64,000 bases of DNA from Leptogorgia sarmentosa (taxonomy: Eukaryota): positions 15,438,001 through 15,502,000 of the forward strand of contig OZ210885.1 in assembly GCA_964658305.1 (NCBI GenBank), given 5' to 3'. The notes beneath the pieces were generated by a model that saw nothing but the letters and a program-made list of their open reading frames with translations, did not search any database and was not told where the DNA came from. Below, in pieces: positions 757 to 40,558 of the stretch. Within the stretch, counting starts at the first letter, position 1. Each line of letters begins with the position of its first letter. The position numbers and the translations under genes were made by a program.

Positions 757-3700
757 GGTGGGAAAATGTATGTGTCAATGGATGCAGTATTTGGCTGTGT
801 TAGAAAGATCAGTGCAGGGACAAGTGTTAGACCCCCAAACTATGGTGAGACGCTCTTTATTGATCAATCAAAAGTAGATTCCTTCATGAAGAGCTACAGT
901 GGAAAATCATTAAAATCACAGGTGCATACCATAAGTATGAATACTTAATGAATGTTTACCAACTTAACTAGAACCGTTTATCCAGTGATTAGCTAGGCAG
1001 TTGTTCACCTGTCCTAAAAAATAAGTTTTTTTGGTTCATCGATATACGCCTAACCCTATAAATCAAGTATTTGATGATTCAAATACATCTTCTATGCTTG
1101 TTTTGTTGAAAATTCATTTTAAATTTGGATATTAATTTTTAACTGCTTAGTGAAACAATCTCAAGTTGTTTTTAATTATTGCGATTTTCTGTCTATGGTT
1201 TTTCAGGAGTCATGTAACAATTTTCAAGCTGGTTCTAACCTCAGATCTAAAGTAAAGACAAAAAAATTGGATGAAACTGCCATATTCGGAGCAGGATGCA
1301 GGCATGAAGTTCCATTAAGATTCTTTAGTCTTAAACGAGGAGAAGAGTAAGTGTTAGATTGATTAAATATGTATTCTGGTTACAGAAAGTAATAACAATA
1401 GTACTGTATAGTGTAGTGTAGCATAGCGCAGTAATTTAATTATATTATTTGCATCTTTTAGGATTGGCAATGCAGTTTATCTGCTGAAATGGTTGAAAGA
1501 AAACTACACAAACTTGGACATGTATCTATATTATGATATTGCTTGTACATTGGAATCTCACTTGAAGGGTTACTCTGTGAACATTTACATAGCAATCAAA
1601 TCAGGTTGTCACGTTGTCAAATTAACCAATCCATCCAACTTTTCTCTCGCGGCACTGCTCTAACTGCCGTATTGTTATCAATACAATATTGTGGTATTAA
1701 TAAGTGACTGCTTGTTAACTAGAAGATTTTGTGTGTTTTCAGAGGACAAACCAAGAACACTTGCTAGAAAATGTTAAAGTGGCTATTCCAACATTTCACT
1801 GCTATGGACACAAAGTATCATGTCAGGTAAAGGGTTACATTTTCACATGTTTACCGGGTATACATACCTGATTTCTTGTTTTAGTTCGACAAAGTTGTAT
1901 TTGTGTTTCTTTTTAAGGTTTCTCTAAGTACATATTACCAGATTTTAACACCTTTGCTTTTGAAGGTTTTATATAGTGGCAGGCGAATAGATGGCTTTGG
2001 TTTAAGCGACGGGGAGGTTATGGAACGTATGTGGTCTTACCTTAGACCTGCCAAAATAACCAAAGAAATGACCCCTTCTCATCGAGTTGACGCAATGACA
2101 GACTTTTTGTTGCATTATGGAAGAAAATCTGTAGGAAGGATTGGTAACGCAACGTTTGTGAATATTTAACTTACTGTACGTTTATTTTCCATAGTTTAAA
2201 CTTGTTTAGCTACATGCTCATAGTCAAAAATTTTAATTGGAGTATAATATTCATGCTTTGAATATTCATCGCTCACATTTATAAATTTTGCCGTAACGAC
2301 ATACAGGTACACTTCTGTCTCTTATGATGCATACGATTTGAACCTCACTTTTACTGTTCATTTTTTCAAAATACCAAACAGGAGAACGTCTGTGTGATCA
2401 TATGAAGAAGGCAGTGCACATGAAGGCTGATACAAATGATCAGTTGAATCTTCTCCTAGAAAATCTTACTGAAAACGGTGTGTGCTTGATATTTTTGTCT
2501 GACTATACTATAATTACGAGAATTCAGTGTTTGGATCAAGTCTTGTGTTAAGGCTATTAGCGAAAATCAAGCTTTGCCTTATTCTTAAAGTATATAATGT
2601 CCATGAAAAGTCGAGGATGATGAACTTTATATGAAGATGTAGATGAATCGTAAAGTCTTCAGTTGAAGGAGTTAAATACCGAACTGATTTTATAGTTATA
2701 GCAATGATAAGAAGTACTTGCATGCAGTCAAGGTCATTGTCTAAACAACAAAAATCGTGTAACTTGAAACTCCAGACAAATTTCATTTTTCTGACCGTTA
2801 TTGGTAATCAACCGTACATGTTTGTATTTACGTAATTATATAATATATATTTACGTGTATATTTTATTTATATAATTATATTTACGTGGGCTCAATCTGA
2901 AAAAGACCTCTTTAGCAAGAAACAAGCGAAGAAAAGTAAGGGAGTTCGCAAGGGAATTCGCTTAGTATTGAAAATTCGTGCGAACAAGATATTTCGTTTT
3001 TCAAACGTACTAGGGCCAGTTATTTAAAGCACAATCTACGCTAACCCTGCGTTAAAATTTACCGCGCTGTTTTAGTTGTATTTCTGCACATCCATTAATT
3101 TGAAACGTCAAAAAAGATAATTCATATTGATTCTGACTCTTGTCTGGAAATATCTCGAAAGCTCTAGCTGTTAGAAAGTTATGGCCTTGGGGTAAGATAA
3201 ACGACTTTTGATCAACCAGCCCCAGTGTTAGAACTTGGCATAATTTTCAAGCACAGTATTTATACTGTATATGTTCAAAACTGGTATTTTGAATTTAGAT
3301 GATTCGTCGGATGTTACTGAACGTTATGCAGGAAAACTTAAAGAGTATTATGATGCAAGGTTGTTTTGTTTACTATACTGCTGCATGTACTATGTATTAA
3401 ATGATTCTTGCGTTTTTGCGATCTACCAGGAACACGCAGGAAAAAGGTGGACGTTTCGAGCAAAGCCCCTTCTATTGTAAGGCAGTTAGTAACTTACATC
3501 CGGATTTTTTTCTCTGTATAGGAAGAAGCTCGAAGATACCGACTTGGCTAATGAGGAATTTTCAATATTAAGTTCAAAATTGAACAGGTAAAGTATTTGG
3601 GGTTTTTAATGTTGTGGACTAAAACAACCAAGAAATAATAAATATAGCCAATAGAATTTTGCCGTTGTCTGTTCCGTTATGGTGGAATAGACAACAGCAA

Positions 3701-4936
3701 AATGTTATCTGTTTGTTTATATAATTAAAAAGAAATTTTTGCGAAAATAAGCGCAACGAAAAGACTTTTGCACGCCATTTGACGTGATCATGATACAGCT
3801 CAGTGGTCTGTACAATACAAAGCACGCCATTCGCTGTTGATAATTCTGAAATGGCTGTGATTGGCCTGTCACTAAAATGGCGTCAGCCGTGCGCCTGTCT
3901 TCTAAAAGACAAATTAAGACGTATAATGAATGGTTATTATATAAACTCGTGACTGTACTTTCCATGTGTGTTTTCACTTTTCAGCATTAACGAACAGTTG
4001 AAAAAACTTGAAAATGGTCAACAGCGTTGGAGTCAAGATAACCCAACATTCAAGCTGTATATCAATAGAGCTGAAGATGTGCGCTGAAACGAGTTGTTGA
4101 GTGAAATGCGTGGGCATTGTCTAGAACGCTGGTTTTTACTGCAGCTTATGAGGAAATATGCAGGTATGTATATAAGAAGGAATCTAAGCAAACTGATCTG
4201 GATTCACTACAGGTAAATTCGGAGCGATCCTCTAAAATCAGTGGAACCGATTCCTGTAATTTTCCGCATGTGATTTATTACGTTAGAGTGGAAACGGTAA
4301 GAGCTTTTTATTTGTTTTATAGATGGGCAAGCTATAGCGAAAAAGATCTGTGGTCAGATAACTAAGACCACAAACACAATTAAGAAACTTGTAAAGGAAT
4401 ATGGTAAAAAAATTACAGAAAATCAACAATCAAGGTATCCTGCAAATATTACGTTTGAAGAAATCACTGATTTAAATTCGACAATTTGGAACTATCTTGA
4501 GGAAGAGCTTGATGCTGAATCTCCAGTCCCCTATTACATCCGCCGTAAGATCGTTGACTTTCACCATATTATTCATCGATGTACTGAAGAATTTCAACTT
4601 ATTAAAGAAGAAATGACCTGGGTTATTGACTATTATCGCCTAAAGGTATCCGCTCTGCTTAAGTGGTCGGAGGAGTTAAGGAAGGAAGACAGTAATCCAG
4701 AATCAAGAGGGTTATTAACTATGGTCTTGACAAAGAAAGAACTTCTCGACGTTGTCTCACAACATTTAAATGCACTGTTCGCTCCGTATATGGTTGAAGA
4801 TGTAATTTTACCAGAAGATCTAGAAGTTGGGGTATTTACAACCAGCATTGAAAATGAAGATGAGGAGGAATTACCTAGCCACGATGATCTTGATGGAGAA
4901 GACGATGTTTCAGACGAGGCAGAAGAAGACACTTGA
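757..4936 (+). pseudogene. Spliced KDZ (Kyakuja-Dileera-Zisupton) transposase, 5'-incomplete, with a nonsense codon
   Basis: GT-AG exons at about 757-921, 1207-1347, 1462-1568, 1743-1826, 1966-2143, 2382-2478, 3299-3359, 3522-3587, 3985-4163 and 4323-4936 encode YVSMDAVFG, LDETAIFGAGCRHE..GE, YYDIACTL, FHCYGHKVSC, GFGLSDGEVMERMWSYL and ERWFLLQLMRKYA|DGQAIA. These are KDZ motifs. In-frame TGA at 4085-4087. Confidence 0.85.
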
Positions 4937-5625
4937 TATATTTGTTTCATTGCTCAATGAACAATTTGGTAGCGATAATGAGGACTCAGATGTTGAACAT
5001 TCAGATGACGAAACAAATTAATTCAGAATTCACCTATAAGTTACAGCTATATGGCAGCAGATTGTGGTCAACTTCAGAAATGATGAAATATGTAGCTCCA
5101 AGAAAATGAAACTACATTTCTCAATTCTACTTAATATTTATTTATTTGATAATAAAATATAATTATCATTATTTTCCTACTTTGAATGCTGCGGGGTGAC
5201 CACAATTCGTTGCATGATAGTATTTAGTAAAACCTATAGAACGACATAATAGATGTATTTAGTAGAATAATTGCAATGCTGTAATTTGATAGGCCGTGTA
5301 GTGAGTAGCATAACAATTGTTTTCCCGGTGCATTTTTTCTAAGAAATGGTTTCTCGCTCACGTTTGTTGTTTTTGTGAAAAATTTTGTTTGATCTCTGAT
5401 TCTACTAACACAATCAGATTACTGGCTCTCAATTTCTATGAGGTTATAGTTTATCCAACCTTCGCCCTCATCAACTACCACCTCATAGAAGTCTCAGCTC
5501 GTAATAGTATAATATATTCAGAGACTCAACAGTTAAGACAAGACATTTTATTATACTAGTTAGTTTCGTGCCACACTCACCGTGTGGTACTCTTCACTGA
5601 CAGATAAAATTTTAGGTGTATATGC

Positions 5626-6020
5626 ATATGGCTGGACAGAATCATAAACGCGTTTCTGGGTAAGACACTTGCAATTTATTTTTTCCAATGAAATTTTGAG
5701 AATACATTTCTTTCGGTGAGATAAGTATGTTGTGAAAGTTTCGTCGTTTTCTGAACAATCTAACTGAGAATTTCGTGATTTTTACAAGAAGCCTTATATA
5801 TGGGTGTAGTATATGGCTGGACAGAATCATAAACGCGTTTCGGGGTAAGACACTTGCAATTTATTTTTTCCAATGAAATTTTGAGAATACATTTCTTTCG
5901 GTGAGATAAGTATGTTGTGAAAGTTTCGTCGTTTTCTGAACAATCTAACTTCTCATGTGAGAATTTTGTGATTTTTACAAGAAGCCTTATATGGGTGTAT
6001 ATGGTTGGACAGAATCATAC
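5626..6020. repeat. Tandem duplication, ~186-bp unit (2 copies plus the start of a third)
   Basis: ATATGG(C/T)TGGACAGAATCATA starts at ~5626, ~5811 and ~5999; the first two units are near-identical. Confidence 0.85.
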
Positions 6021-6461
6021 ACTTTAGTTTTCATATTCACATGGGGGGCAATATCACAGGAATATCATGCACCTAGCGGATGCGACCTCGAAGATTTTCT
6101 TTCAATTTTCTACACGTACTGGATAAATGAAACATATATACTGGCTAATTAGTTCATAATAAACAACGTCATGCATGTATCATCAAGCTAATTTAATATA
6201 CAATCCAAAAGACCCTAGACAAATGCAACACTTGGAATTAGCTACAAACTATTTTATTTATATTAGTTGATGTAGGACCCAGACCGGTTTACAGAACCAC
6301 AAAATGGAATAAACGAGAATCATTTCTTAAAGCAAATCTTACCAACCATTATGAATTTTTTTTTCTTCAACCACATGAATTATACGCATAATTCGTTCTT
6401 TTCAGCCAGTAAACTGCATAGCATGCATAATGATAAAGTACTTCAGAGTGAACCTACTGTA

Positions 6462-6639
6462 CAGGGTGTCCCAAAAAAAATGTCCCCTCTGTTGAAATCA
6501 GACGTTTTGGTTTGACTGTGCGTTGTGACACTTTTGGGAATTGAATTGACTTGTACATGATGTTATAATTATTCCGCCATTCATGTGCAATTAAGTCAAT
6601 TCAATTGCCAAAGAGGGGACATTTTTTTGGGACACCCTG
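6462..6639. mobile_element. Tc1/mariner-type MITE
   Basis: TIR CAGGGTGTCCCAAAAAAAATGTCCCCTCT / AGAGGGGACATTTTTTTGGGACACCCTG, flanked by TA on both sides. Confidence 0.9.
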
Positions 6640-6729
6640 TAGGGGGAGTTTCAAAAAAAACGCAACCACTTAATATTGTAAAATATTCATGTTTTTCTTA
6701 AGCACAAATAATTGTACAATCGAACTGCC

Positions 6730-7404
6730 AATAGTAATATCAGCTAAACTAATAATGGTTCAGCTCTCAACCGAACAATGAATCTATTGTGCTTGAAAAT
6801 AAAGTGAATAGTTTAGAATATGAAGTGTTTGCGTTTTTTTTAGACATCCTGTTTTAGCCAACATAATTGCATCGGATGGGTAATTTCGAAATTGTTTGTT
6901 GCTTTGCAAAACAGATGAAAACAACAGAAACCTTCCAAAACCTCTTGAGAACAATGGAAAATGGGTGTGGAGGGTATAAACAGCATAAAAACCGAATGGG
7001 AGGTCTTTATTTATAAACCTAATTAAGTAGACTGATTTCTTTGAAAAGGACTTGCCTTTTTTACGCATCATTAATTCGAAGTTGTCGAATTTTAAATACA
7101 AAGGTGATGATAGCTAATTTGAAAGTGTTCACTTTTTCAATACACCTTGTGGGCAACATTCTTATATGAGTCATTAACCGAATTAATTAATGAATTGAAT
7201 GTTTTCCATGTTGAAAAAACAAAATACTTTCAATAATAATTTCTAAAACCCATATATACAGTAGCTATAAATTAAGTAATCTAGAGTAATTATTATAGAT
7301 ATTATACAACATTGCTACAATACAACATTGCTACAATAGTCATATCAGCGAAACTAATAATGGTACAGCTCATGCCGGCACAACCGAACAATGAATCTAT
7401 TGTG
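6730..7404 (+). repeat. Two copies of a decayed Tc1/mariner transposase 5' end (MVQLSTEQ...)
   Basis: Direct repeat AAACTAATAATGGT.CAGCTC...AACCGAACAATGAATCTATTGTGC at ~6730-6792 and ~7335-7404. It follows a mariner-like end (GTTTCAAAAAAAACGCAACCAC, ~6648). Confidence 0.4.
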
Positions 7405-7780
7405 CATTAATTACTGGGTGTATGAACGTTTCTGGATGGTCAGAAAGAGCAAGATCGTATCTGTTATATGAGAGTTGTTCCCATGACACATTCCTGATTA
7501 ATTTCATTTCTCCTTTTCTATGTCCTGCTTTATTTATGTATTTATATATTATAATTCGCAAAGCTGTGGCATAGTGCGAATATAACAAAAAAAGAATAAT
7601 TATGCACAAAGGTGAATATATATGATTTTGACATATAATTCATTTTATCGTTCTAGCCATCGTACATTGGGTTTTATGTTTCTTTTATCGTTCTTTCCCT
7701 GATCTTTCTAACCAGAAGCAAAAATTACATACACCGGGTAATTAATGAAGGCGTAGAATATTGGATCAGTGCCGAAGACT

Positions 7781-7880
7781 TTTGGTCATGCAAATGCAAA
7801 TTATAGACCGTTATATAAGGAATCAATTTCTAAGGAAATGAATAACAATGATGACTTAAATTTGCATTTGCATGACCAAA
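7781..7880. repeat. Short inverted repeat / mini-MITE
   Basis: TTTGGTCATGCAAATGCAAA ... TTTGCATTTGCATGACCAAA (20-bp perfect arms). Confidence 0.7.
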
Positions 7881-7967
7881 CGTCGGGCTGGCTTCGCCAG
7901 TATTGGATACAATAAATTGCTGTTATTTTAGTCTGTGGCTGTTATACGGGTTGTGGCCAGGTACAAT

Positions 7968-10900
7968 TTACTTTATTTGCACAAGAGCTAGCCTGTTACT
8001 TGGCCACTCATAAAACCCGCCCACAGAAAGAGGTTCATCCATGTCAAATGCTGCAGTACAAACAGGAAGCAATCCAGGCGTAATAATCTTTTTCGTTTCT
8101 ATTACAACATTCCCAACACTCACTTTTCGACCGTGTACTTCTGTTCTTTCTGTAAGGACTGCCAGAGCTTGCACGTCATCACTATCTCTTGACATTACAC
8201 CAAACATCATATCTGAAAATGTAGAAGTCCAAAAACTTGTAACATGCAGATATAATAATATCATGACCATCAAGATTTTCTGAGAGCCTTACAATGATTA
8301 CACAATTATAAACTCATTAATAATTTCAGAGGAAATTAGCCTAACATGTTACTTTATTTTGGTCACACGATAATACTGGATACGTGGGGAACTATAATGA
8401 TCCAGTCCTACGACTGCATCAAAATTTTTTTCAATCTGAACTGAAAAAATAGATTATTCATTCGTTTTTGATGTAATTCCAAATCCTCCAATTTGGCTGG
8501 AATAGATTTCAAGCCCTCACAGTTTGATTCAGTCCTCAGCTTTGCCCATACAAAATTGATATGTTGGCAAATAACATTGCCTATATTTTTGGCACACGAA
8601 ACACTTTGCACTCAAATGGTATTCCATAGTTGAAATAATTGGTGTAAACGTTGCAAGAATCGCTCTACCTTTAGGAACTTTTACGGCTTTGGCCTTGTGA
8701 AGGTCATGTAGAGACGCCAGGGTTGCACGCGGGTTACACATTTTGGAGCGGTCGGAAGCAGTGGAATTGCAAGCAGCAGGATTAGAAACGGACGGGGACA
8801 AATGGGATGAAGTGACAGCAGAAACAGAAAAGCTCGCAGTGATAGTACTATCAATTGGATGGTTGGAAGAATCATGCACAGAAATAGGAGCGTTTTCTAT
8901 ACCAGAAGACTGAGACGAGCTGGAAGTACTGGAACAAGGAAAGGGAATGTTAGGAGTAACAAGAGAGCTGGAAGTACTAGGGCAAGGAATAGATGCAAGA
9001 GAGACAACAGAATTGGGAGAATCGGAATTAATGGAAGATGGTAAACTGGAAGCAAGAGGATCGATAGCGTGAAATTTCGAGGAGAGAGTATCAGATGTGA
9101 AAGACCAGCTATTTCTGCACTGCCACAACTCACGACACTGGGCTGAACCATACAAGGCAGGTTTTCTTGGTGTCTTCCCAATTTCGTCCTCTAAATTGTT
9201 TGGAAGCCCCTTAAAAACAATGCCATACTCATTCAGTTCCGAATATGGCATTTTTGCGTTTTTCTTTTTCACCAGTTCACCTGTAAAACAACCATAAATG
9301 TGTTTCTCAAAAATGTGTTTTTTTTATGACAAAAAGCATCCGCGTTGCCTGTGTCGGAGGAGAACTACTGTATAAAACATGCGACCTAAAATCCAGATGC
9401 CTGAACTTTGAAGTTATACTTACATATTCTTACTGCTCGTAATTACTTACTTACATACTCTTACTTTTTGCTTTCGCACAGAGTACCTCTCACTGAAGGA
9501 AGTTTAAGCCTGGGGCTCAATAATTTTCCGTCAAGAGTAGAATGTGGTGAAGCTGTGGGAGGAAATTTCTCGGCCGAGGGTAGGTACATGGGTGGGGCCA
9601 AAACATTTTAACGCTGAACATTTTCCCATTTCGTCAGCAAATGCCCCAAAATAATGACTCCGCTCTAATCAATCACGTGATGTATAAATATTAAGATATT
9701 TTGGTATAGTGAGGGAAAACTCCCAGTGAGATTACTCACCGTATTTCATGTTAAATAATCCCTGAATACATTTTACGGAGATGTCTTCCTTTCCACAATG
9801 AGGATGTTAAAAATGCAGAAGTCATTCAAGTTTTCCAGTTTTGAAGGATGAATCAATGTTCAACGATTAATCGATGTTAACCTTTCTATACAATGTAGCT
9901 TTAGAATTATAAAGTGAAAGCAAATTACAAGACTTACATTGTAACAGGTTGGCAAAATGATGAACCAAATCAGTTTTGCCTGTTAATAACTTGTTACCAA
10001 CATCTGTTGTACCATGGTACACATTGCCACCATACCCACATATTAATAAGCAGTGGCCTCCCATAGACTCCAGTTTTTGCACCTTTGCAAAAATATAAAA
10101 ATACTCGTCGATCAATGATATGATAGTATATTGTATGTGAAGTACCGTTCATATTGCAATCAATTTATCACTTAGAGACAACACTTAGAGATCAAGCCAG
10201 TACAGTAGCCAGAGTGTAATAGTTTATACAGCAATTCATATAAATGAAGCAATTTCATTGGTTCTTGTTCGTGTGCGGTGCGCCATTAGAGTATACATCA
10301 CGGATGACTTCATCCAACAACAAAAGATATTTTTTTAGATCATATTTTTTTATATGATAGAGTATAGTAATGATATAGTATATAATAATTATGTAGTGCA
10401 GAGTGTAGTGTGATAATAGTGTAGTGTGATAATAGTGTATTGTAGTGTAATGTATAGTGTACTGCATTGCAGTGTTGTCTACTGTGCTGGGTATAGTGCA
10501 GTCAGGCCCATTGGGAGCAGGGGGTTGGTGGGTTGGGGGCTGCTCAGAGCAACATCACTAAACCTGTTGACAATTAAATTTATTTTCACAAATGCACATG
10601 TTCAAGAGCTAGCTAATTAGCTTTTGAGCAAATGCATTTGACACAAAATTTGTCAAAGAAAATTTGGTTATGTAAAAGGGGCTTAACTGTTAACAACTTG
10701 TAACAAGCTTGCTGGCATTATTAGAATACCCGGTACTGAAACAACCTTGCAACAAGGCTGATAATATCAACAAGGTAATGTTACAAATTGCTGACAGCCT
10801 GTCCCATATTTGTTGACAACTTGGGACAAGCAGTTTGCAACTTGTTGATTGCTTGTTGGCTAATTTTTACAAACTGTGAGATTTTTGTGTATGTAGTTGT

Positions 10901-19900: not shown

Positions 19901-22900
19901 AAAAGATACTATACATCTCTAAAAAGAGCACCCGAGTATAAGAAGCGTGTTACGTGGGTGGAAAAATTTCCAACAAACAAATATCTAAATGTATTGCTGT
20001 TGTCGAGTATATTGGAATTTTTCCACAGAACGTTGTCCCTCATGGAAATGCCAAACACTGTAACGCAGACTATGTAAGAAGTAGTGAAGCAGTCAAAACC
20101 AAGTTGACAGAAAAATTTAAGAACAACAATGGTAGTCTTCTAGCACCTGGAAAAATTTATGAAGAAATGGTTTTAGAAGATCCAGAAAACGCACCACGAG
20201 ATCTTAAACAGGTACAGAATGTGAAATATTTAAAGAATAAGAAAAATAGACACCAAACAAACACTGAACACAGAAGAAAAAACATTGCTGATGATGTTCT
20301 AAGTTTATTGAACATGTTTCATGAACACCCTTTTGTCCAAGAGATCATTCAAACAAAAGGGAAACCTCCCTCGGTTATTTTGTACCTTATGATATCTTGT
20401 GCGGATGAGTACGAGTTTCAGTTGGCAGCTTTTGAATTGGAAGAAAAGTACAGCAAATTCATCCCAAAGTTTCTTCCATACTTTGTTCGATTAACAAAAT
20501 CCCTTCTCGAGTTCGTCTTCTTGCCAAGCAAAAACAATAATTGCGTTCCCATAGACTGGAAGAACAATTCATGCGAAAGCATGAACCACATTCTGAAACT
20601 TTTATGCAACTGGAAAGTCCAAAAAATGACAGATTTAGTCGAGAAAATTTTCAGGATCGTGAAACTGCAGTACGCTGACATGAAACGTGCCCTTTATGGC
20701 ATGGGCAATTTTCAGATTGCTCCATGGATGGCAGCGTGCAAGGTCAGCCAAACCAACTGGGCAACTAAGTCGGAAGAAGAGAAAGACAAACTTTTCCAGA
20801 AATTTTTAAAAGGCGTCCCGAAGAAAGAAAAGAAAATTAAGTCGACGGATGGAGGAAGATTGGAAATCCCCACAACACAGAAAGTTGCAAGAAAACCGGG
20901 ACAACGTAAACGAATAAAATCTGTACGAACTCGGTAAAATTGGTTAAAGTTATCAATCGTGTATGCTGTTATTGATCTAGTTTGTTATTATTTTTTTTCC
21001 TTTTGTAAATAGTGAAATTGGTATATAGTAATAGTTTCTTCTTGTAAATAAATAGTGTAATATAGTCAGTAGTCTTGTTAATATAGTGTGACATAGTGTA
21101 GTGGAAAAGAAGTTTTAAATACAATACAAAATACAGAACTTATCCGGTTTAATTAACCTTTTTTGCAAGTCGCGCCTTTTTTGCAAGTCGTGCCTTTTTT
21201 AACGAGTCGCGCCAATTTAGTCGCGCCTCGCGCCTTTGAGTCGCTACTCGCATGCCAGGGTGCATTTTACACAAAAGCTACGCCGAAGTTACGCCCGTGT
21301 CTTGACAAAGTCACGCCAAGAGCAAATAGAAACTCTATAAGATCACAAAATCATCGAGCAACGTTGCGCCAACAACACGATTTATTATGCAATCTCGATT
21401 GTGATTGACTAAGGACCTATAGGCAATATCTCCATGTCTTGCCAGTTGCCACCTACAATGACATGGATAATTAATTATGTTATAACTGTCGTTTGCTGCA
21501 TGCGCGTAGACAAAATAGCTGATAAATGTATTTTCAATGCATAATAATTAAACAATTATTGAATTCGGTGTTCGCATTCGCTTCGGCAGATAATGCAAAC
21601 TTCGGCTTGATAATTCTCAATATCATGCTCAACCTAATCGAATAATTGTTAAATGTATGATGTAGGCAGTAGCCTGGTTTTAGTTGTTGAATAGCAACCG
21701 TCAGATGAGCAGCAAAAAGTTTTCAAGTTAAGTTTCAACAAAACCGTCAATTGTAATATGAAAATCTAATCAGGATATTGTATAGTTGTCTAATAGTTCT
21801 AATCAGTTTTTATGAAATTGCTGTTCAATCAGTGTTGCCTTTGGAGAGAAAAGGACAACGACCTAAATCAGAATCGATCCGATCCACAACTTTAGAAACA
21901 CAGTACTTTTCAGAAAAGAATGCTCGTTGCCTATGTGGTCTCAGTTCATCATCACCATGAAGATATAGTTGGACGCTCTCGTGTATGATGGGCTCGCACT
22001 TCTTAAGTGAGGGTAAACACCAATTGAGTTTGGTTCGCCGGGCAAGTGTTTCATTTGACTGCCCACCGGATTGTTGCTGTGCTCTCATAGCGCTATAATA
22101 ACTTTCTGCTATTGCCTCAGGCCCTCCTTTCGACAACACGATGTCGATAATGGCACACGATGGTGGTTTGGCAATGCTGTATATTTCTTCATTGGCGTAG
22201 AAGGACTTGAAAACATTCTGCTCATGCAATCGAACATCGAACTCCTTTCCATTGGCAAACTTCATCTTGAAAAGGACATCAAGGCCATCGGAGTTGATCG
22301 ACTCAAACAATACAAGCTTGGAATCTTGTGGATGCAATGGAATGCTGTCTGCTCCTTGCAACATAAACCATTCGGGACAAAGTAACGTCCAAATCCCAGC
22401 CATTATTGCCTCTTTGATGCGACTCATGTATCGATGTGCGAGTCGTGGATCAAAGTCCATACCAGACTGTTTTATGTGTAACATCTTGGAGGCAGTGGCT
22501 AGTACAGCTTTACATTCTTCAACTCCATAACTTTCATACATTCCATCCGATGCAATTAATTTAACCGACCCTTCTGAAAAAACCCCACAATGCAATGTTA
22601 CCAATGTAGCTGCATCAAATACTTCGAGAATTGACAGTGAACTATCTGATGTCACAGACAGGACTCTTCTGTTCAAGGACTTCTCTAATTCCAATGCTAA
22701 GCTCTGGTGATCTTTACAGATTTCCTCTATTTCCCGTTCTTTCCAAACAAACCGCTTATCCAAAGCATCCTTTCCCTGATCTTTGGTAATGAGCCAGCCT
22801 TCGAGCAGCGTTACCTGTTGGTACTTGTATCCTGGCTTTATATTTTCCCGGCCAGCTTTTTCTAAGCGAGGGTATGCTGCGGCATCACCACGAGAAGCTT

Positions 22901-25900
22901 TTTCTAACTTTGCTTTCACTATTGGCCACCATAATTTTAGCTTCCAGATTAGGGTATCAAGAGATTGTACCCGTAGCATTAAGTCAACCACTGGTTGCAT
23001 AATATCGAGGAAGGCCAGTAAATCTGCTACAAAATCATACCCAGCAATCATATACTGAAGCTCCTCTTCCTCATCCCGGACTGGATTGAGCAGATCAAAT
23101 GCTTTCCAGAAGGAAGCGTAGCTGTTTTCAATCTTTAGCCATTGGTCGTAGGAGGAGCTTGCAAATCGTTGGCAAGCAAAAGGAACAGGTCTTCGTGCAG
23201 ATTTGTCCACAAGCTGTAAAAATGCAAAACCTTTGCCGTTAGCCAGGATCGAATTGAATATGTTGCATCTTTTTACAAATCTTCTGAACACATCACCAGC
23301 TTGTGTTTCTGAATCTTTCACATTGACAACTGCGAGATTTAGGATATGGGCGGGATCCCAAGTAACAGGCAGTGCTAGACTTTCCAGGCCATCTTCTGCA
23401 ATCTCTAAAATAGCCATCAGCTGTTTGCGAAATCCACCGGCTTGATATGGCCCATCAGCTGCAACACCACAGAGCCTGGAAAGAACTTCTTTTGAGAAGT
23501 TGTTCTCAATTGCTTCAAGAAGGAGTTTGGCCAATACATCGTACGAGGCTTGCTCGAAATCCTTGTAGACAGCTGGAGCATCAACAGGAATTGGGCACGG
23601 AGTACCAGATTCATTTCGTCCAACTACAAGAACAGCTTGATTGGTAATTCGAGCAGGAGTAGCCTTATCTATTGTTGCCCATATGTGAGGGGGCAATTGA
23701 GTTGAAGGAAGAGGTTGGTTCAGCCAGTCGTTGATTTTTCCGTTTACTGTCTTTTCTAAACAGTGCAGAATTTCACTGAATTTATTACGGCCGTGACCGA
23801 TATTGCCAACATCTACCCCACAACACGCCAGAAAAGATATCATCGTTTCGAAATTTCTGGCTGCTGCCCCAAGCTTGAGATCGGTAATTGCTGCCCGAAA
23901 TATATTACCCGTAGCCGAAGCTTTTCTCTTCATCATCTCTTTCTCTCGCTGATATGTCTCCATTGCAGTTTTATGAACCTTCGAACTTTCACCGCTTAAA
24001 CATAGGTGGTCCATGCAAGATTTCTTTTGCCTATACCAGGTTTGATTTCCTCCTTCAATTAGTTGGCGAGTAGTCCTTTTATCCAGGAAAAGTCCATTGC
24101 CAAGAGTACCGTTACTTGATGAACAAATCAGCCGCTGGGCTTCAAACGCGCTGAGACGACGAAGATTTGGTTTGGCAGTGATGTGGAGTCTGAAACAAGG
24201 TAAACAACGGAGTACACTAGTTTCCGAAACTTCATCATAAAAGAATTCAACGAACTCTGATAAATCGGTTAACTCGTAAATATTCTTTGCTTCCCGCATT
24301 ACCGAGATATTTGCACGAACGTTATCATCTTCAAACACCAACTGTTGGAGTGTGGTATGCTGACTTCCAAATTGGTCAACTTTAAGGGACAGCTTTTCAA
24401 TAGCGCAAACTACGTCCTTTAACGAGGTATCACTTGGGGTCGGAACTGTTGCTTCAGTTGTTTTTTTAAATGCAAGCAATGTGGCCTGACTCTTGCCTTT
24501 TGATGTTGTTGGTTGACTTGGTTCGGAACTATGTCCACATTCTTCTTTCTGGGTGAAAAGATCGAGATCTTCTTTTGTGTTACTCCTACGCATGATTTCA
24601 ATGGAAACAGCAGAAGGCTGCTCTTCGACGGAATTAAAACCACATTTGGTGTTTTTTTCTTGTGAGGTATTCGTGATTCTTGAAGCTTTGGAGTCTTGTT
24701 TTCGAAGAGACTGGATCTCTGGTGCATTTGATGGTACAATAGTACACTTGGACGATTCCGCTTCCTTGTGCCATCTTTCTTTGTGTCTTTTGATACTTGA
24801 TGTATCGTTTCTGCACAATGATGCAAATTTCTCATCTCTTTTTCCAAGAAGTGACAGTTTTAAACATTCCATGCAAGTGTACTTTTCTCGTAATTTTTCC
24901 GCTTTTGTCGGACCAAGGTTGCGTTTCTTCTCTGGAACAGGAACACCCTTTCTCCATTCCCACGCTGAATAACGTTTAGAGGCTGTTGCGTTCTTTTCCC
25001 TTTTCTCATGGTCTTGCGTTTTGAATGAAGCGGACGTTCGAGGAATCGTCTTACTAGTTCTGTTTTCTATTAAAAAGGTAAGCGGGCTTTCCATATATAC
25101 TGGTGAACAAAGACAGTTAGAAATTACAATCAACTCATTAACCATAATAACCACTGCATTATTTACCATCATTGTTGGTGTTGCAAGTAGTGCAAATCAC
25201 TTTTTGCCCGAATCCTTCCTCCCCTTCTGGAATACCACAATGCAAGTGGACAAACTTTTTACACTCCTTACATGAATGAGCGTCGCCAACACTTTGGAAA
25301 CAAACATGACACACCTTATCCATGGACTATGGTCTAATTGTTAATTAAAACCAAAATAACATAAAAGATTGTTTTGAAATTTGCACTCCGGTTAAATAAT
25401 TCAACGCAAATCATTAATGAACAAAAACTGCTTTAAAAACGATACTGCTGAAACAGTTTATAGAAACATTTTTCATACCTGAATAGTGAATATCTGATTT
25501 ATTCAATGATATAAGAATATTATTGATATAAGAGCATTAAACACTTTTTACCAGTTCATTTGATGCTGGAATAACAGAATTACATCTTATTTCGATTATT
25601 TCAATATAATAGTTCAATACGTTTCAATCGATTATTTGTTCAATCAATATTGACGTCGTGTCAACGTATGTGTTGCGTAACCGCGTGTAATCGAGGCCGC
25701 GATCAAAGCCGATCATTCAGCAGATTACTAGTTTTATTCGGTATACTTTATGTTAATGTGGCAGGCTCGTAGTCTGACTTTAATTTACAGCCAATGGAAT
25801 ATGGCCCCCAAACTGAAACTCCTAAAGGTAGACTAATTTAAAATAACTAAAATTTCGTAGCTTTAACTTTTTATTTATACATTGTATCAAACTTTATAAA

Positions 25901-26869
25901 ATCACGATATGCCATAGTACGCCAACGCCATTACGCCAGTAATTCATAAAATTTTTACTACGCCAACACGCCTAAAACTATGCGATCGTACGCCACTACG
26001 CCGAGCATTTATAAAGTCCGCGCCGAAGATCTTCGGCGTACGGGTCTTCAAATGCACCCTGGCTCGCATGCCGTGCCAATTAGATTATCTCTGATATTAC
26101 AGAATTTTTAGCGGACGTTGGCGGACGTTCGCGGACAGTGTTTAGTAGGACCCCACCTGAAAGTATAACAAGAAAAATAGACAAATCCAGTCTTGAACAT
26201 ATGTATGTACTGATGAGTAAAATAATCCTTGCCTCAAATATGTCTGGTTTTGGGATATAAAAAACATATAAGAATATAACAAATAATTCCTAATTAGATA
26301 TATGAGGGTACAATGCTGCAACTTCGAGTGTCAAGTGCACCTCATTGTCTGTTTACTCTGTCTTTACTCTTTATGTCTGACAATCCTGAATTAATATTAT
26401 ATGCACAATCATAGAAACAATAACAATAGAAGCTCGCGTCTGTTTAGTAGTTTAATTTAATTTAAAGTAATACATGAAACAAATTCAGAGATAACTGTAA
26501 AATACGTTTATTATCTGTACATATATATATCAGTCTTGTCAACAACAAGTCTTTTTATATCCTACTCAATTTACATAATACTAATTTACATAAACTATCA
26601 TGCTAAATGTGACATCTCCCGTTCTTTTTTTTTTCATGCATAGTTCAACTGCAGTTGACACAATGGACAGTGACAGCACTACCAACCTTGACCTGTTGTT
26701 CTGTAAGCATCGTACGGCTTGCACATTCTCGTATCACAGGTAAATTTTCTTTTTTTGTTGAACCCATATTCCTGTTGTCAAAGAAGAACTTCAGAATTGC
26801 CAACTTCTCTTCGTCAATTACTAAACGGCCTTCAATCGTATTGTTGTTTATACTAGGAGTAATTTCCAT
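7968..26869 (-). CDS. Multi-exon homeodomain-like + HMG-box + Tnp1/En-Spm-like protein (probable transposon accessory gene, partly decayed)
   Basis: Phase-compatible exons: 26869-26687 (..LTEQQVK), 17311-17191 ([25 protein letters not shown]), 16953-16781 ([25 protein letters not shown]), 10082-9938, ~9805-9740 (acceptor reads AC, not AG), 9280-~8400 (Ser-rich, frameshifted) and ~8213-7968 ([18 protein letters not shown]). Confidence 0.75.
10330..10957. repeat. Degenerate (TAGTG)n / (TGGAG)n(TAGAG)n pentanucleotide microsatellites
   Basis: Directly visible at ~10360-10500 and 10900-10957; similar repeats resume at 16527-16680 on the other side of the IS3EU element. Confidence 0.8.
11588..14139 (+). 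CDS. CUE-like + HECT-domain E3 ubiquitin ligase (G2E3-like), spliced; first exon not found
   Basis: Exons 11588-11691, 11940-12049 ([39 protein letters not shown]-like), 12148-12740 ([42 protein letters not shown]), 13098-13275, 13506-13703 and 13916-14139 ([29 protein letters not shown]). Catalytic Cys is present. Confidence 0.85.
14206..16238 (-). pseudogene. IS3EU-type DDE/integrase-core transposase, spliced and decayed
   Basis: [17 protein letters not shown] exon; [42 protein letters not shown]. The middle exon (~15080-15320) is frameshifted or deleted. Confidence 0.85.
18170..18590. repeat. ~130-bp direct repeat
   Basis: TGTTAGTTAGATTATAAT.ATATCCGCAATAAC...CACTTCATTCACT at ~18175 and ~18460. 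Confidence 0.8.
18842..19087 (+). CDS. PHD-finger ORF/exon
   Basis: [30 protein letters not shown] matches the C4HC3 PHD pattern. Confidence 0.75.
   Translation: MGRKNCKQIEYPCGTCDKDCEVGSPPAVFCGDCNLWYHAVCQQLTAEMMKALENDVVQDYVCKNCAQQDGEWEMCSRMLVQ
19508..20937 (+). pseudogene. MULE-like transposase with a frameshift and a deleted DDE core
   Basis: [28 protein letters not shown] and KPPSVILY jump directly to the C-terminal region containing [14 protein letters not shown] (catalytic E motif) and RALYGMGNF. Frameshift near 19980. Confidence 0.65.
21549..21652. repeat. Short palindromic-ended interspersed repeat
   Basis: Terminal inverted repeat AACAATTATT ... AATAATTGTT inside the hAT 3' region. 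Confidence 0.5.
21825..25172 (-). CDS. Uninterrupted ~1100-aa hAT-like transposase
   Basis: N-terminal C2H2-like motif ([12 protein letters not shown]), WATIDKAT (D1), GVAADGPY (D2), WDPAHILNL (CxxH-equivalent), [13 protein letters not shown] (E). The true start may be the M at ~25094. Confidence 0.8.
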   Translation of the reverse strand: MMVNNAVVIMVNELIVISNCLCSPVYMESPLTFLIENRTSKTIPRTSASFKTQDHEKREKNATASKRYSAWEWRKGVPVPEKKRNLGPTKAEKLREKYTCMECLKLSLLGKRDEKFASLCRNDTSSIKRHKERWHKEAESSKCTIVPSNAPEIQSLRKQDSKASRITNTSQEKNTKCGFNSVEEQPSAVSIEIMRRSNTKEDLDLFTQKEECGHSSEPSQPTTSKGKSQATLLAFKKTTEATVPTPSDTSLKDVVCAIEKLSLKVDQFGSQHTTLQQLVFEDDNVRANISVMREAKNIYELTDLSEFVEFFYDEVSETSVLRCLPCFRLHITAKPNLRRLSAFEAQRLICSSSNGTLGNGLFLDKRTTRQLIEGGNQTWYRQKKSCMDHLCLSGESSKVHKTAMETYQREKEMMKRKASATGNIFRAAITDLKLGAAARNFETMISFLACCGVDVGNIGHGRNKFSEILHCLEKTVNGKINDWLNQPLPSTQLPPHIWATIDKATPARITNQAVLVVGRNESGTPCPIPVDAPAVYKDFEQASYDVLAKLLLEAIENNFSKEVLSRLCGVAADGPYQAGGFRKQLMAILEIAEDGLESLALPVTWDPAHILNLAVVNVKDSETQAGDVFRRFVKRCNIFNSILANGKGFAFLQLVDKSARRPVPFACQRFASSSYDQWLKIENSYASFWKAFDLLNPVRDEEEELQYMIAGYDFVADLLAFLDIMQPVVDLMLRVQSLDTLIWKLKLWWPIVKAKLEKASRGDAAAYPRLEKAGRENIKPGYKYQQVTLLEGWLITKDQGKDALDKRFVWKEREIEEICKDHQSLALELEKSLNRRVLSVTSDSSLSILEVFDAATLVTLHCGVFSEGSVKLIASDGMYESYGVEECKAVLATASKMLHIKQSGMDFDPRLAHRYMSRIKEAIMAGIWTLLCPEWFMLQGADSIPLHPQDSKLVLFESINSDGLDVLFKMKFANGKEFDVRLHEQNVFKSFYANEEIYSIAKPPSCAIIDIVLSKGGPEAIAESYYSAMRAQQQSGGQSNETLARRTKLNWCLPSLKKCEPIIHESVQLYLHGDDELRPHRQRAFFSEKYCVSKVVDRIDSDLGRCPFLSKGNTD

Positions 26870-27559
26870 ATTAATGATTTTTATGATTTGTATAAATATT
26901 GATGACTGTTGGAAAGAGTGATCTACAAACAGCTTTGAATAGGTTCAGTAAGTCAAGTTATTTAATATACAGAAATTTAGAGAAAGACAAGTGCAAGGAA
27001 TCGATATGAAAATGAGTTTTAATATAGTGAACGAAGCGTATATCTAGCTTATCTCTCGAATTCACGCGCTATATGTACAAATTTCGCGCGCACATACAAC
27101 GCGCATTTAGAAGCATGAGACTGGTACATATAATAAGATTATTAGGCTTTGTTAGGTGTATTACACCTACATTAGTCGCTACTATGCGCCAATTACATTT
27201 CAATTGGATATGTTAATATGCGTATAATTACGGGTGTATCAGGTGTTATGATTGACAGATGACATAGGTGAGATGCAAAAATGTCTGCACATGCGCGCTA
27301 ACGTCACGCGTACGTACGAGGTTGCACGCGTACCACAATAAGATGCAGCATATTTCAGCTTTAAATAGAATACATTCAATCAAAGTGATGTTAAGTCCTT
27401 ATGCTGTTTGTTCACTTTGTTGTGCTTCCAAACGTTTGCGTTCAACTTCGTTTTGCATACAGTTCATCGCGTGGCAACAACGTTTAGCAATGTTTTGGAA
27501 GGTCCTCATTACTCCCTTTGAGGACCACAAACATAAAAGATATTAAAAAACTTTCGAAC

Positions 27560-28620
27560 CATCAACACAATCACAACTGTTCAACCACTTTACTTGGTGA
27601 CTGGTGAGTGTTATATTTGTTGAGTAGTTGTGATTGAGTTGGTAGTTCAAAAAATGTAAGCAAAAGTGGGATAACTAAGGTAGTGATTTTTGCAAAGCCA
27701 TTTGCCAAACGTTTAAATATGTAACATTTTAACTAAACAACTTAATGCCATCATTCACACACCACAATAAAGCCCTTAATGTGATGAATGTAGTAGTAGT
27801 TGAATGGTTGTAATTGAGCCCTTGGTTCAAAACATATGGGTTAAAATATTATGAATGCATGGCGATGTTCACAAGACCATAATACCATCCTGTAGAAATG
27901 TGTAAACTTTTAACTGAACAACTTAATGCCATCATTCATACACCAAAATAAAGCCCTTATTGTGGATGAATGTAGTAGTTGGTTGAATGATTGTAATTGA
28001 GCTCTTGGTTCAAAAGATATGGGTTAAAACATGTACATGATGTTGGTAAAATTTTAATGGTGCATGCTGGTATTTTTTTTTCAACTTTTCATCCCATATC
28101 TCAAAACACCATAATGTTTACATGGCTGAATCCCGACCACGCCCAATCATATGAGACAACCAACATATAGATCCTATTTACATCATAATGATGAACACTT
28201 TCACAATATATATATTCAAGAAAAAATGCGTGCATCATGGTGAAACGTTGTGACAGACATGGCAATGAATGCGCATGCGCCATAAATGCTCTTGTCTTAT
28301 ATATATATATTACAATACGTAATATATATATATTTACATGCTTTAATTTGATATATCGTTGGTTGGATAAACATGTTCTATTCATGAGTTATTAACAAAT
28401 TAATGAAAAATGTTGGCGGCTATATTGGATTTATGAATTTCTATAATTATACTACAATTTTGCTTATAACTTTGCAACGAAACGGTGCTAGACGGTGGTT
28501 CAAATATCATTACAATCGTCGTTTTACGCGCTTTAATTTGATATATCGTTCGTTGTATAAGCATGTTCTATTCATGAGTTATTAAGAAATTAATGGAAAT
28601 GTTGGCGGCCATATTGGATT
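27560..28620. repeat. Cluster of ~180-190-bp direct repeats
   Basis: AACTTAATGCCATCATTCA..GGTTCAAAA twice (~27740, ~27920); GCTTTAATTTGATATATCGTT..ATATTGGATTT twice (~28340, ~28530); 28102-28225 recurs at 28940-29060. Confidence 0.75.
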
Positions 28621-28766
28621 TTGAAATCTAATATGAATTACTATAAAACTGTTCATGCAATATCTCTTTTACCTTTACGTGAATACACTTCATGCTTTGC
28701 CACGTGAAAGTACATGTATTAGGCAAGGATTCTTGGTGGTTGCTGTAACTTATAAAGTTATATTAA

Positions 28767-29141
28767 GGTGGCTACGCGACGTTAAACATGGTCGTAAATG
28801 GTAATTTGACCTATTTTACCATGCGATATCTCTGTGGTTTTAGAGGCTACAGAGACGTAGTGAACATTTTATAGATGCCCAGACGCTGAAGAACAGAATG
28901 TGAGGGGAAAAATTTTTTTACTTCAAACGGAGCGTGGCAAAACACCATAATGTTTACATGGCTGAATCCCAACCACGCCCAGTCATATGAGACAACCAAC
29001 ATATAGATCCTATTTACATCATAATGATGAACACTTTCACAATATATATATTCAAGAAAAAGTAAGTGTATCATTGTCAAAAAGTAAGTGTATCATGGGG
29101 CAAAATCAAATTATGACCATGTTCAACTTCACATAGCCACC
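28767..29141. mobile_element. Kolobok-type MITE
   Basis: TTAA|GGTGGCTACGCGACGTTAAACATGGTC ... GACCATGTTCAACTTCACATAGCCACC|TTAA (27-bp imperfect TIR, TTAA TSD). Confidence 0.8.
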
Positions 29142-29858
29142 TTAATATACGTTCTAAAGTTCTGTAACTACGCCTAACCAGAGCCTACTGCATGTGCTTT
29201 GATGTGTCAAAGAACGAAGATCATACATTAGCCCTTTTCACATTAGAAGACGGACAAGTCGTCTTGACGAACAAATCGTCTGTCAGTTTGTTCGTCTAAT
29301 ATGAATTCTAGACCGACAAATCGACAACCATGATTTAGGGGCGGTTACAAAGTAAGAGCAACATGGCTGCCAATCGATTGTTTTTGAGCAGCCAGCTGTT
29401 GAAAATAAAACGTCCGCTTTGCAACCTAACGTCACAGAGAAGGTCAATGAAAGTACCTTCTCTTACAAAACAAAGAGGACTTACAATCTGTTAAGATAGT
29501 CATAGCAGCTATATTTGCAACAAAATGTGGGGAAAAAAGGAAAGGTTAACCCCTTTGCCGCTAAATTTTGGTCTTTTGTTGTTGTTTTTTGTTGTTTAAA
29601 ATGTTAAAGTCAAGAATGCAATGCACGTGTGGTAGTTCCATTCCTTTTGCGCCACCTCGCCAAGCATGGTTTCCATGGATAATGAAATTACTGGTAATGA
29701 AATTACATTTCGGATTTAAATATGAAAACATGCATCAAATCATGTATCATAAAATGAAACTGTCACAAAGTCTATGTAATTTTCTTCCGGACTTAGTTCA
29801 AGTTCTAAATTGTTTTAGTGTTAAATTAATTTTAATGGCTTGTTGCTTATTTATATTA

Positions 29859-32492: not shown

Positions 32493-32548
32493 ACATTACC
32501 TTCCTTTTAATCATCTCATTTGGTGATCATGTTTATTTATATAGTAGA

Positions 32549-33047
32549 TGAAAATGACACCAGCAGCAACGGTGATGACAATGGTGCTGACTCTGATAAA
32601 GGTGATGATGTTGATGCTCATTATGTTGAAGAAGAAGAGAAGCAAGACGAAAAAGAGATTGCATTAGATAAAGAGAAGAAAGGAATATTTAAGAGCAAGA
32701 AAATAGGAAAGACCAAACTGGAAAAGTCGATTGAGTTGCTAAGTGAAAGTTTTACAAATGCATCAAAAAGAGAGGCTGACATGATGACGCAACTTGAAGA
32801 AAAACGGCACAAACAGATGTTGGACCATGAGCTAAGGATGAAAGAACTTGATAATGAGAGACGGCGGGAAGAGAGAAACCATGAGATGCTGTTGCTTCAA
32901 ATGATGTGCAACAATAGAAATTATAGTAATTCTCAAGGAGAAGTAAGTTTCAGTAACAGTGCTATGTACACAACTCCTCCAGTTATGCAGTACATGCCAT
33001 CAGAGGGTAACAATAATGATATTGGCAATACCTATTTTAAATTGTGA
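32549..33047 (+). CDS. Terminal exon of a Harbinger second ORF (acidic + coiled coil, typical of the Myb/SANT partner C-terminus)
   Basis: Follows the acceptor ATAGTAG; encodes KTKLEKSIELL..LEEKRHKQ..ERRREERNHEMLLLQMM; converges on the Harbinger transposase. A Myb/SANT exon itself was not found. Confidence 0.55.
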
Positions 33048-33189
33048 CAATTCTGCTACATTCCATTGTTTTGGTTTGTATGATAAGTGACACAACGAAG
33101 TTTTTTATATTGTTCTTCTTAAAAGAGTAAGCTTATTAAGTTTTATATTGTTAACATAAAACAACGTTTTAAGATGATGGTTTGTGTGT

Positions 33190-34455
33190 TCATTGTCCTC
33201 CAATTCCAAGGTTTCTACCTTCTTCATTTAGGAAATATTCTGCAAGTGTATCACAAATGATAGATGCATCACTTTCATGATCTCGCCCTTGTACCCCAAT
33301 ATTATCTGGCTGATTAGTTTCCTCTCTTACATCAAGCCATTCTTGCAAGAAATCATCTCGCCTCAATTCACAAACGTTATAGACCACACAAGAAGCTGCG
33401 ACGATGTACGTTGCAGACTCTACTGCCATATCAACACGTTTAAGAAATCTTCAAAAACGTCCCTTGCACCTTCCGAAAGTATTTTCAACGGTCATTCGCG
33501 CCCTGCTGAGCCTTTAATTGAAATTGCGCTGCCAACGAGGTGTATCTGCGTTTTCGGGGTAGGCTTTCATAAGCCATTCCAACAGAGGGTAGGCAGGGTC
33601 TCCAAGTAATACTGGACTGATATCAACACCAAAAATGGTTTGATCCATATTTTCTTCGAAAAGTTTCTTTTGAACACCCAAGTTATAGAGTTCTGAATTA
33701 AAAAGAACACATGCGTCATGGACGCTCCCTGGCCAACCCACCACTATATCACGAAAGAGGTAACGACAATCGATGACTGCCTGCATAACAATGCTATGGT
33801 AGCTCTTCCTGTTAACGTAATCCGTATGATTTTCCTTCGGAGCTTGGATAGCAATATGAGTTCCATCAATCGCACCAGCACATGCAGGGAAACCCCATCT
33901 CAACTTATAAAGTCTCATAACTTCTCTCAAATCTTGGCCTTTAGGTATTGATAAAAAGCGCGGTTTCAGTTTTTTTAATATTGCCATACATACGTCTTTT
34001 ATACAGAGACAAACAAATGCGGTGGAAACCCCAAATAAATTTGCCACTGTTCTGTATTCTGATGTTGAACCAATGTAATAAAGTGTAATTGCCAGGCGTT
34101 TTTGTGGGGAAATTGCATGCCGTAGCTTTGTATTTTTTCGCGTAATATCACCTGTAATTTCTGATAGAATATAGTTGAAGGTGTCTTTGGAAATGCGGAA
34201 GTTTACATACCATTCTTTCTGCGGTAGACTCGTTAAAACAATGTCAAACCAGTGATTACTTTGAGGAAGCATCCAAACTGACCGGTCGATCGGAGGATTG
34301 AGAATTGCAAATATGGCCATGATTAACTGCATTCGTTTTATATGACTTCGCCTATATCTTCTGATGTTTGAATGACTGCTGAGCATCTTTTCTGTTAGTG
34401 GCAGTGAACTTCTTCTGGACGATACTAAGCACTTTAAAAATATTGGATCCGCCAC
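33190..34455 (-). pseudogene. Harbinger (HARBI1-like) DDE transposase
   Basis: NFRISKDTF, GFPACAGAIDGTHI, YVNRKSYHS, GWPGSVHD, LLGDPAYPL, RMTVENTFG. In-frame stops at ~33514 and ~33450; start codon reads GTG. Confidence 0.92.
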
Positions 34456-35470: not shown

Positions 35471-35604
35471 CTGTATTCTCTCTATTTAGCCCCCCCCCCC
35501 TCTCAAATAAGCCCCCCCCCTCTCAATTAAGCCCCCCTCTAAAGGTCCTGAAATGAATAAGCCACCCCCCCCCCCCCCCAGGGGGCTAAATAGAAAGAAT
35601 AAGG
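35471..35604. mobile_element. Tc1/mariner-pogo-type MITE
   Basis: TA|CTGTATTCTCTCTATTTAGCCCCC ... GGGGGCTAAATAGAAAGAATAAGG|TA; a related end occurs at ~41344. Confidence 0.65.
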
Positions 35605-40537: not shown

Positions 40538-40558
40538 ACTATTATACAATGGGCAATA

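Follow-up and report, generated by a model that had tools for sequence, protein, structure and literature searches.

Fish Zisupton elements consist of a single long gene, which in some members includes a SUMO-protease domain, and CACTA elements combine the transposase TnpD with a second DNA-binding protein, TnpA. Iyer et al. are said to have noted in 2014 an association of fungal KDZ/Kyakuja elements with HMG genes. KDZ elements transpose with 7–8 bp duplications (PMC12730594, PMC11588098). Among them, Dileera elements (Cryptococcus KDZ1-3, PMC11588098; Puccinia Zisupton-1_PGr, PMC12730594) have a transposase of family PF18758 and are multi-gene elements of 9–17 kb with extra open reading frames (ORFs); in Cryptococcus, they are accompanied by the cysteine cluster CxC1 (PMC11588098). 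The Kyakuja elements of mushrooms are large, with a second gene, 5'-CA..TG-3' termini, 7-bp target site duplications (TSDs) and no terminal inverted repeats (TIRs) (PMC12730594). The Zisupton elements of fish are multi-exon KDZ-group transposons with TIRs (via PMC12730594 and PMC9297572). Here we describe a locus from the animal Leptogorgia sarmentosa (GCA_964658305.1, contig OZ210885.1, positions 15,438,001 to 15,502,000), analysed as a window of 64,000 nucleotides. We consider it likely, with a probability of roughly 0.8, that this window covers, except for its leftmost ~2 kb, an inactivated copy of a cut-and-paste KDZ transposon with two genes, a transposase gene and, tail to tail with it, a gene for a homeodomain-HMG protein (the partner gene).

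With Dileera the locus shares the PF18758 transposase, CxC1 as the best cysteine-cluster match in its closest relatives, and the multi-gene organisation. It differs in its animal host, in its extra gene, which combines homeodomain, HMG box and GTF2I repeat where the fungal elements have TET/JBP or a domain-less ORF, and in its probable CACCCG ends, as against GACCTTT in the two Puccinia Dileera entries seen (PMC12730594). The ends, which fit CA..TG, and the large size with a second gene recall Kyakuja, whereas the 22-bp TIR of a relative (family E) does not; CxC2 scores below CxC1 in the closest relatives and above it in family C. A multi-exon KDZ gene and, in family E, a TIR are shared with fish Zisupton; unlike Zisupton, the locus and its relatives carry their accessory domains, protease included, on a separate antisense gene. 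A second DNA-binding protein paired with the transposase is also present in Harbinger, where it is a Myb/SANT protein (PMC12730594). Both the transposases and the DNA-binding domains of Harbinger and CACTA are unrelated to those found here. The terms HMG and homeo do not occur in the main text of Kojima 2025 (PMC12730594), HMG is absent from the part of its supplement text covered, and no second gene is described in the passages of PMC9297572 and PMC5753468. No description of the partner gene was found in the titles and abstract openings covered on KDZ, Zisupton or Kyakuja elements with HMG, homeodomain or GTF2I, a scope that excludes Repbase and subscription papers; the pairing may already be recorded there.

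The material for comparison consisted of public loci, proteins and sequencing-run contigs (four runs, X1, X6, X9 and X10, compared with the window). A KDZ alignment scan of metagenome contigs gave 194 matches, the best 80 of which were retained and represent 40 families. The window itself is intron-rich, transposon-dense animal DNA of ~37% GC. The two genes are composed as follows:

757–4936, plus strand: KDZ DDE transposase gene, 10 exons in view, broken copy
757–921, 1207–1346, 1462–1567, 1743–1826, 1966–2143, plus strand: KDZ exons 1–5 in view
2382–2477, 3299–3359, 3522–3587, 3985–4163, 4323–4936, plus strand: KDZ exons 6–10 in view
26869–26687, minus strand: partner exon 1, with the start codon (ATG) and the larger part of an atypical homeodomain (its third helix is completed in exon 2)
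17311–17191, minus strand: partner exon 2, end of the homeodomain and start of the HMG box, in the same order as in the spliced homolog P0054
16953–16781, minus strand: partner exon 3, remainder of the HMG box and a helix (PF00505, E 2.8e-4; PF09011, E 3.5e-4)
10082–9938, minus strand: partner exon 4, conserved middle domain
9280–8669, minus strand: partner exon 5, GTF2I (TFII-I)-type repeat followed by a Ser/Thr-rich linker, 3' donor uncertain
8212–7968, minus strand: partner exon 6, with the stop codon (7968–7970) and a predicted barrel of five strands, SH3/Tudor/KOW-like

The ten KDZ exons form one joined frame, interrupted by a single in-frame TGA (4085–4087), and end at 4936, in agreement with the original prediction, which had a plus-strand KDZ transposase ending at about 4.9 kb. 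Three of the exons matched PF18758 in a Pfam scan (E 8e-6, 5e-4 and 7e-9), and the model was 52.5% identical to the independent spliced protein P0028 over residues 2–518. In viral contigs, the last KDZ exon matched none of 18 stretches. D, D and E motifs, with the acidic residues that we take to be the catalytic ones, were seen in the window copy and across the majority of families in the core alignment. The splice donor after 1567 reads GG in place of GT. The window copy is probably dead as a source of transposase, and the frame of its partner gene is intact. Upstream KDZ exons with the N-terminal cysteine cluster were not found in positions 1–900 and presumably sit left of the window. The close relatives L005 and L008, with core exons 72–85% identical to those of the window, carry a CxC cysteine cluster. 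In the closest relatives, CxC1 scored highest, at 42 and 35 bits versus 30 and 32 bits for CxC2, and CxC2 was also above the cut-off in L005 and L008. Because CxC1 is best in these relatives and accompanies Dileera in Cryptococcus, the window element is probably Dileera-like, as judged from the cysteine clusters.

The partner gene was likewise found where it had been predicted, on the minus strand and ending at about 8.0 kb. Its six exons (26869–7968) join to 492 amino acids (aa) without a stop, and all five introns are GT-AG, the donor of exon 5 being weak. Exon 1 had no Pfam match, and by itself no match in a sequence search of PDB. Its structural model (pLDDT 90.5) contains helices 1 and 2 and the start of helix 3, and only homeodomains were present among the Foldseek matches listed (best E 0.23 for this 50-aa query, none with E<=0.001). 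PF00046 matched the homeodomain of the relative L063 with E 0.017. A profile of the partner homeodomain matched PDB 2da4 with E 1e-5 and 2e-6, the next homeodomain having E 0.3, and the same entry gave the best TM-score among the matches listed for the exon 1 model (0.80, with a root-mean-square deviation of 1.8). PDB 2da4 is labelled 'DKFZp686K21156', which we take to be human HDX. The exon 1 model matches the three-helix fold of a homeodomain. The HMG box match to PF00505 (E 3e-4) was below the cut-off. A profile built from four homologous exons of the GTF2I-type repeat matched all nine GTF2I-family chains in PDB and no others (best E 2e-6); with PF02946, single exons stayed below the cut-off of 27 bits, at 19.8 and 16.4, and there was no match for the window exon. 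The barrel has 111 homologs and no family-level fold match, the fold search being unspecific with Z at most 5.0. A word-index search with the last partner exon scored none of 101 candidates. An atlas search gave no usable match for the barrel and, for a homeodomain, two matches under 0.8, one of them named homeodomain-only protein, which serves as no more than a lead. The order of the domains was confirmed by two proteins. P0054 contains the homeodomain end, HMG box, middle domain and barrel in a single chain and aligns to partner residues 51–214 (E 1e-8), and P0048 has the GTF2I repeat, linker and barrel within one ORF. P0114 combines this barrel, and a middle region like that of the partner, with a zf-tcix zinc finger in place of homeodomain-HMG; judged by this likeness, the partner modules appear to be shuffled further.

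The original prediction proposed that recurrent linkage of KDZ homologs to the homeodomain-HMG gene be looked for, and among the 80 public KDZ loci the linkage does recur. L013, which was found directly with the window partner, contains both genes in the layout of the window. Its partner exons lie downstream of the KDZ gene on the minus strand; those matched were the exon with the GTF2I repeat and the last one, which is 48% identical (E 4e-18). Between window and L013, synonymous sites are saturated (pS ~0.75–0.8), and pN is 0.33 for the last partner exon and 0.13–0.38 for the KDZ exons, which shows that the pair is old and that both genes were under purifying selection. When flank ORFs were compared all against all, without seeds, two clusters (13 and 9 families, respectively) emerged that lay solely downstream and on the opposite strand. 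With seeded profiles, partner modules were tail to tail with the KDZ gene in 12 of the 15 families with at least 5 kb of downstream sequence, or in 11 of 15 when only modules present in the window partner were counted. Over all families this arrangement was found in 16 of 40, while the other quadrants gave one family downstream on the same strand (a rearranged copy), three upstream on the opposite strand and none upstream on the same strand; the searched lengths were 323 kb upstream and 311 kb downstream. Independent assembly prefixes (Ga0126338, WASV01, VSKX01 and JAAGOD01) added L013, L057, L038, L075 and L032.

Two types of partner were distinguished. The first has a GTF2I repeat and/or the barrel (window, L013, families B and E, and L038), and the second has a C-terminal Ulp1-type protease and a PHD finger (PF02902 and PF00628). 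In the midpoint-rooted KDZ tree, which comprised the window and, after removal of families with cover <60%, 32 of the 40, and no reference Dileera, Kyakuja or Zisupton transposases, the protease-type families form one clade with an ultrafast bootstrap (UFBoot) of 99. The two types and this clade indicate that a homeodomain-HMG-middle core is constant and that the C-terminal module is swapped. In three loci, homeodomain exons were also seen upstream of another KDZ element (L074:3823–6418, with HMG as well, L025:1555–4313 and L043:4052–4457), and two of these three upstream sets have a CGGGTG end of their own; it may be that KDZ elements form clusters or that one inserts close to an end of another.

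Several families of relatives are dispersed multi-copy units. In A, B, D and G, the copies of a family are alike as far as a sharp left end that begins with CACCCG; outside it, 5, 3, 2 and 3 different flanks follow, respectively. In L006 and L008, which are the closest relatives, CACCCG lies 2.6–2.8 kb before the exon that matches position 757. Both genes of family E are enclosed by a perfect 22-bp inverted repeat, one arm of which is the left end of L051 and the other the right end of L063; the ends are ~11.6 kb apart in L063 coordinates. The original prediction stated that the termini were not visible, the left one lying outside the window. This was borne out for the left end; for the right one there is a candidate:

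27231–27245, minus strand: candidate right terminus at 27236, the last base of a CGGGTG (minus-strand reading 5'-CACCCG), or alternatively at 27245

The CGGGTG at 27236 is situated 367 bp upstream of the partner ATG, and its chance expectation is ~0.03 per 400 nt. A contig of run X10 stops exactly at 27236. In X6 and X9, contigs agree with the window as far as 27245 and continue with 108 and 44 unlike letters, respectively. The right end is likely at 27236, with 27245 as the alternative. The window bases after 27236 are TATCAGG or TATCAGGT. An inverted partner of either end was not present within the window, and a blind search for CACC..GGTG TIRs with TSDs gave only pairs at chance level or other elements.

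Between the two genes' outer limits the element has been enlarged by other transposons, and further repeats lie beyond its candidate right end:

10958–16526, no strand assigned: nested IS3EU-like element in partner intron 3, with a HECT-like gene (plus strand) and an rva_4 integrase gene (minus strand)
17643–26152, no strand assigned: nested 8.5-kb element in partner intron 1, with a PHD finger exon and 23-bp inverted arms
21255–26062, minus strand: hAT-like element inside 17643–26152, with a 1123-aa ORF and the 8-bp target duplication CTCGCATG
27715–29219, no strand assigned: dispersed direct-repeat pairs of 105–144 bp and a pair resembling an inverted miniature inverted-repeat transposable element (MITE)

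The element in intron 1 presumably is Mutator-like (MULE-like), and its transposase had no Pfam match. Its empty site, a joint of 17642 to 26153, was found in three of the four runs (X1, X9 and X10), and a 2.3-kb contig of X9 contains partner exons 1–3 without the insertion. Joints in run contigs also skip the hAT-like element, the 1123-aa ORF of which had no Pfam hAT match. The element in intron 3 has 266-bp inverted arms, a TATGG left end and a truncated right arm (for IS3EU termini, see PMC12730594); it would be an insertion too, and no empty site of it was seen in the run contigs. From 757 to 27236 there are 26.5 kb, of which these two large insertions make up 14.1 kb; without them the element would be ~15 kb. 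The original prediction of a large two-gene element holds as to the two genes, and its size was inflated by ~14 kb of nested transposons in the partner introns.

The same prediction placed repeat arrays upstream of the partner gene, at 27.5–29.2 kb, within the span of the possible element. Repeats do exist there; they are dispersed pairs rather than arrays, with the MITE-like inverted pair at 28688–29219 and, according to Tandem Repeats Finder, one 22-bp tandem of 2.2 copies as the sole tandem. No inverted or other match to them was found elsewhere in the window. As they lie beyond the candidate terminus, whether this is 27236 or 27245, they are likely outside the KDZ element. The spacer between the genes (5380–7900) also contains several short high-copy repeats, including a 185-bp tandem and hairpin MITEs at 6460–6641, 6653–6841 and 7777–7884. 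Summed contig depth, which is not a copy number and was not used as evidence, gave no sign of many near-identical copies. In X1 it was ~390–490 for the KDZ gene, ~340–435 for the partner gene, ~300–356 for the flank at 32.8–34.6 kb and ~1260–2010 for 27976–29183; in X6 and X9 the value for the KDZ gene was ~2–2.5 times that for the partner gene. Positions 27372–27975 had no cover in X9 and X10, a hole that proves nothing.

We propose that the DDE transposase would cut at the CACCCG ends and reinsert the element with a target duplication of 7–8 bp, as expected from the family. The homeodomain and the GTF2I repeat would let the partner protein bind near the element ends, and its HMG box would bend the DNA so that a transposition complex with paired ends may form; such a function in binding and pairing is suggested because the conserved core is a set of DNA-binding and DNA-bending domains. 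The C-terminal module, a barrel here and a protease with PHD finger in one clade, might handle chromatin or silencing. The Harbinger Myb/SANT protein and HMGB1 in RAG recombination are analogues of such a helper. We lean towards a transposition cofactor as the role of the partner.

The main rival concerns this role and leaves the element as it is: the partner could be an anti-silencing or chromatin factor that allows expression of the element and acts outside the transposition complex. The Ulp1-type protease and PHD finger at the end of one well-supported partner clade point in this direction, as does the resemblance, at low Z, of the window barrel to Tudor/PWWP folds, and there are precedents in VANC, the regulator of plant Vandal elements, and in the TET/JBP cargo of fungal KDZ elements (PMC12730594). 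However, what both partner types have in common is the N-terminal homeodomain-HMG-middle part, and it is the C-terminal modules that vary. We rate a purely anti-silencing role as possible, somewhat below even odds; the two roles are compatible.

That the partner gene belongs to the KDZ element at all is very probable. A host transcription-factor gene that by chance lies beside a KDZ relic could be expected in a region such as this, since the window is almost wholly transposon; moreover, an intact partner model stands beside a broken KDZ gene, and the run contigs of organisms A–D hold both genes with ~96–99% identity to the window, as orthologous loci would. Yet the same order and orientation is found in L013 and in many KDZ families, and both genes are part of multi-copy units that differ in their flanks and have a TIR, which makes a host gene most improbable. 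Equally slight is the chance that the partner gene derives from a separate element, for example of the CACTA/EnSpm type, which lost its transposase and of which the repeats at 27.5–29.2 kb would be the subterminal arrays. The barrel presumably resembles the C-terminal domain of CACTA accessory proteins, but no CACTA-related Pfam family was found in the 73 of 111 barrel homologs that were scanned (animal forms may be too distant for this), the repeats have no inverted counterpart in the window, and two of the three loci with upstream homeodomain/HMG matches have their own CGGGTG end.

Several observations weigh against the two-gene transposon that we favour. The left end and the target duplication of the window copy are not in view, and among the relatives there was no locus with both ends, and no TSD. 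Contigs of organisms B and C match the window for 9 bases past CGGGTG, as would be expected if they had an old insertion site in common or if the element ended at 27245. None of the contigs listed from the four runs bridges both genes. The seeds of the quadrant profiles were taken from downstream hits, so that this count is partly circular, and a single assembly pair (WLWD01/WLWI01) is the source of 11 of the 12 positive families. Three of the 15 families (N2, J and L044) had no partner match, and family D, L032 and L075 were counted solely through the protease module, which is absent from the window partner. Nevertheless, with L013, the 12 of 15 families and the multi-copy, TIR-bounded relatives, an animal KDZ element with a tail-to-tail homeodomain-HMG partner, as originally suggested, is supported.

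The remainder of the window contains the following elements and genes:

29855–32494: hAT element (Dimer_Tnp_hAT), skipped by X1 and X6 contigs and thus a polymorphic insertion
32511–34494: Harbinger-type pair, a DDE_Tnp_4 gene (minus strand) facing a second ORF (plus strand)
35152–44189: second IS3EU-like element, 94-bp TIRs from TATGA, 6-bp duplication GGAAAA, with HECT (39220–39900, plus strand) and rva_4 integrase (41639–42220, minus strand) genes in the layout of 10958–16526
36464–39060: 2.6-kb element inside 35152–44189, TIRs from TAGCC, 9-bp duplication ATTGGTTCA, with a DEAD/Helicase_C gene and a cysteine-rich ORF and no transposase; it resembles a non-autonomous AcademH
45348–46414: IS1595/Merlin-type transposase
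46841–48499: spliced gene for a DUF3987-like P-loop NTPase, with no KDZ gene noted beside it
49894–54122: weak Mutator-family matches and a THAP gene
57429–59085: second hAT-like gene, in pieces
60925–64000: cluster of SAP-domain ORFs, continuing past the window edge

If the two-gene reading is correct, it provides a structure for poorly described animal DNA transposons: two convergent, intron-rich genes between CACCCG ends, ~10–20 kb in all, with a predicted cofactor that is testable. Many invertebrate gene models annotated as 'homeobox' or 'HMG box' could then be parts of transposons. HDX is presented in PMC2211742 as an atypical and highly divergent homeobox gene, an orphan whose class is debatable; the clone name DKFZp686K21156 is absent from the passages covered. 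The GTF2I-type repeat of the partner resembles GTF2I, GTF2IRD1 and GTF2IRD2, its profile matching chains of that family exclusively, and both HDX and the GTF2I family differ from the partner in that the vertebrate ones are host genes. By sequence likeness, one transposon gene carries look-alikes of the HDX homeodomain and the GTF2I repeat, and phylogenetic trees could test where both came from. Tentatively, and as a possibility that we regard as rather unlikely, an old and modular helper gene of animal KDZ elements, with its homeodomain-HMG core and exchangeable C-terminal modules, might have been the source of vertebrate HDX and of the TFII-I/GTF2I repeats. If so, HDX and the GTF2I repeats of the Williams-syndrome locus would be domesticated parts of a transposon accessory gene.

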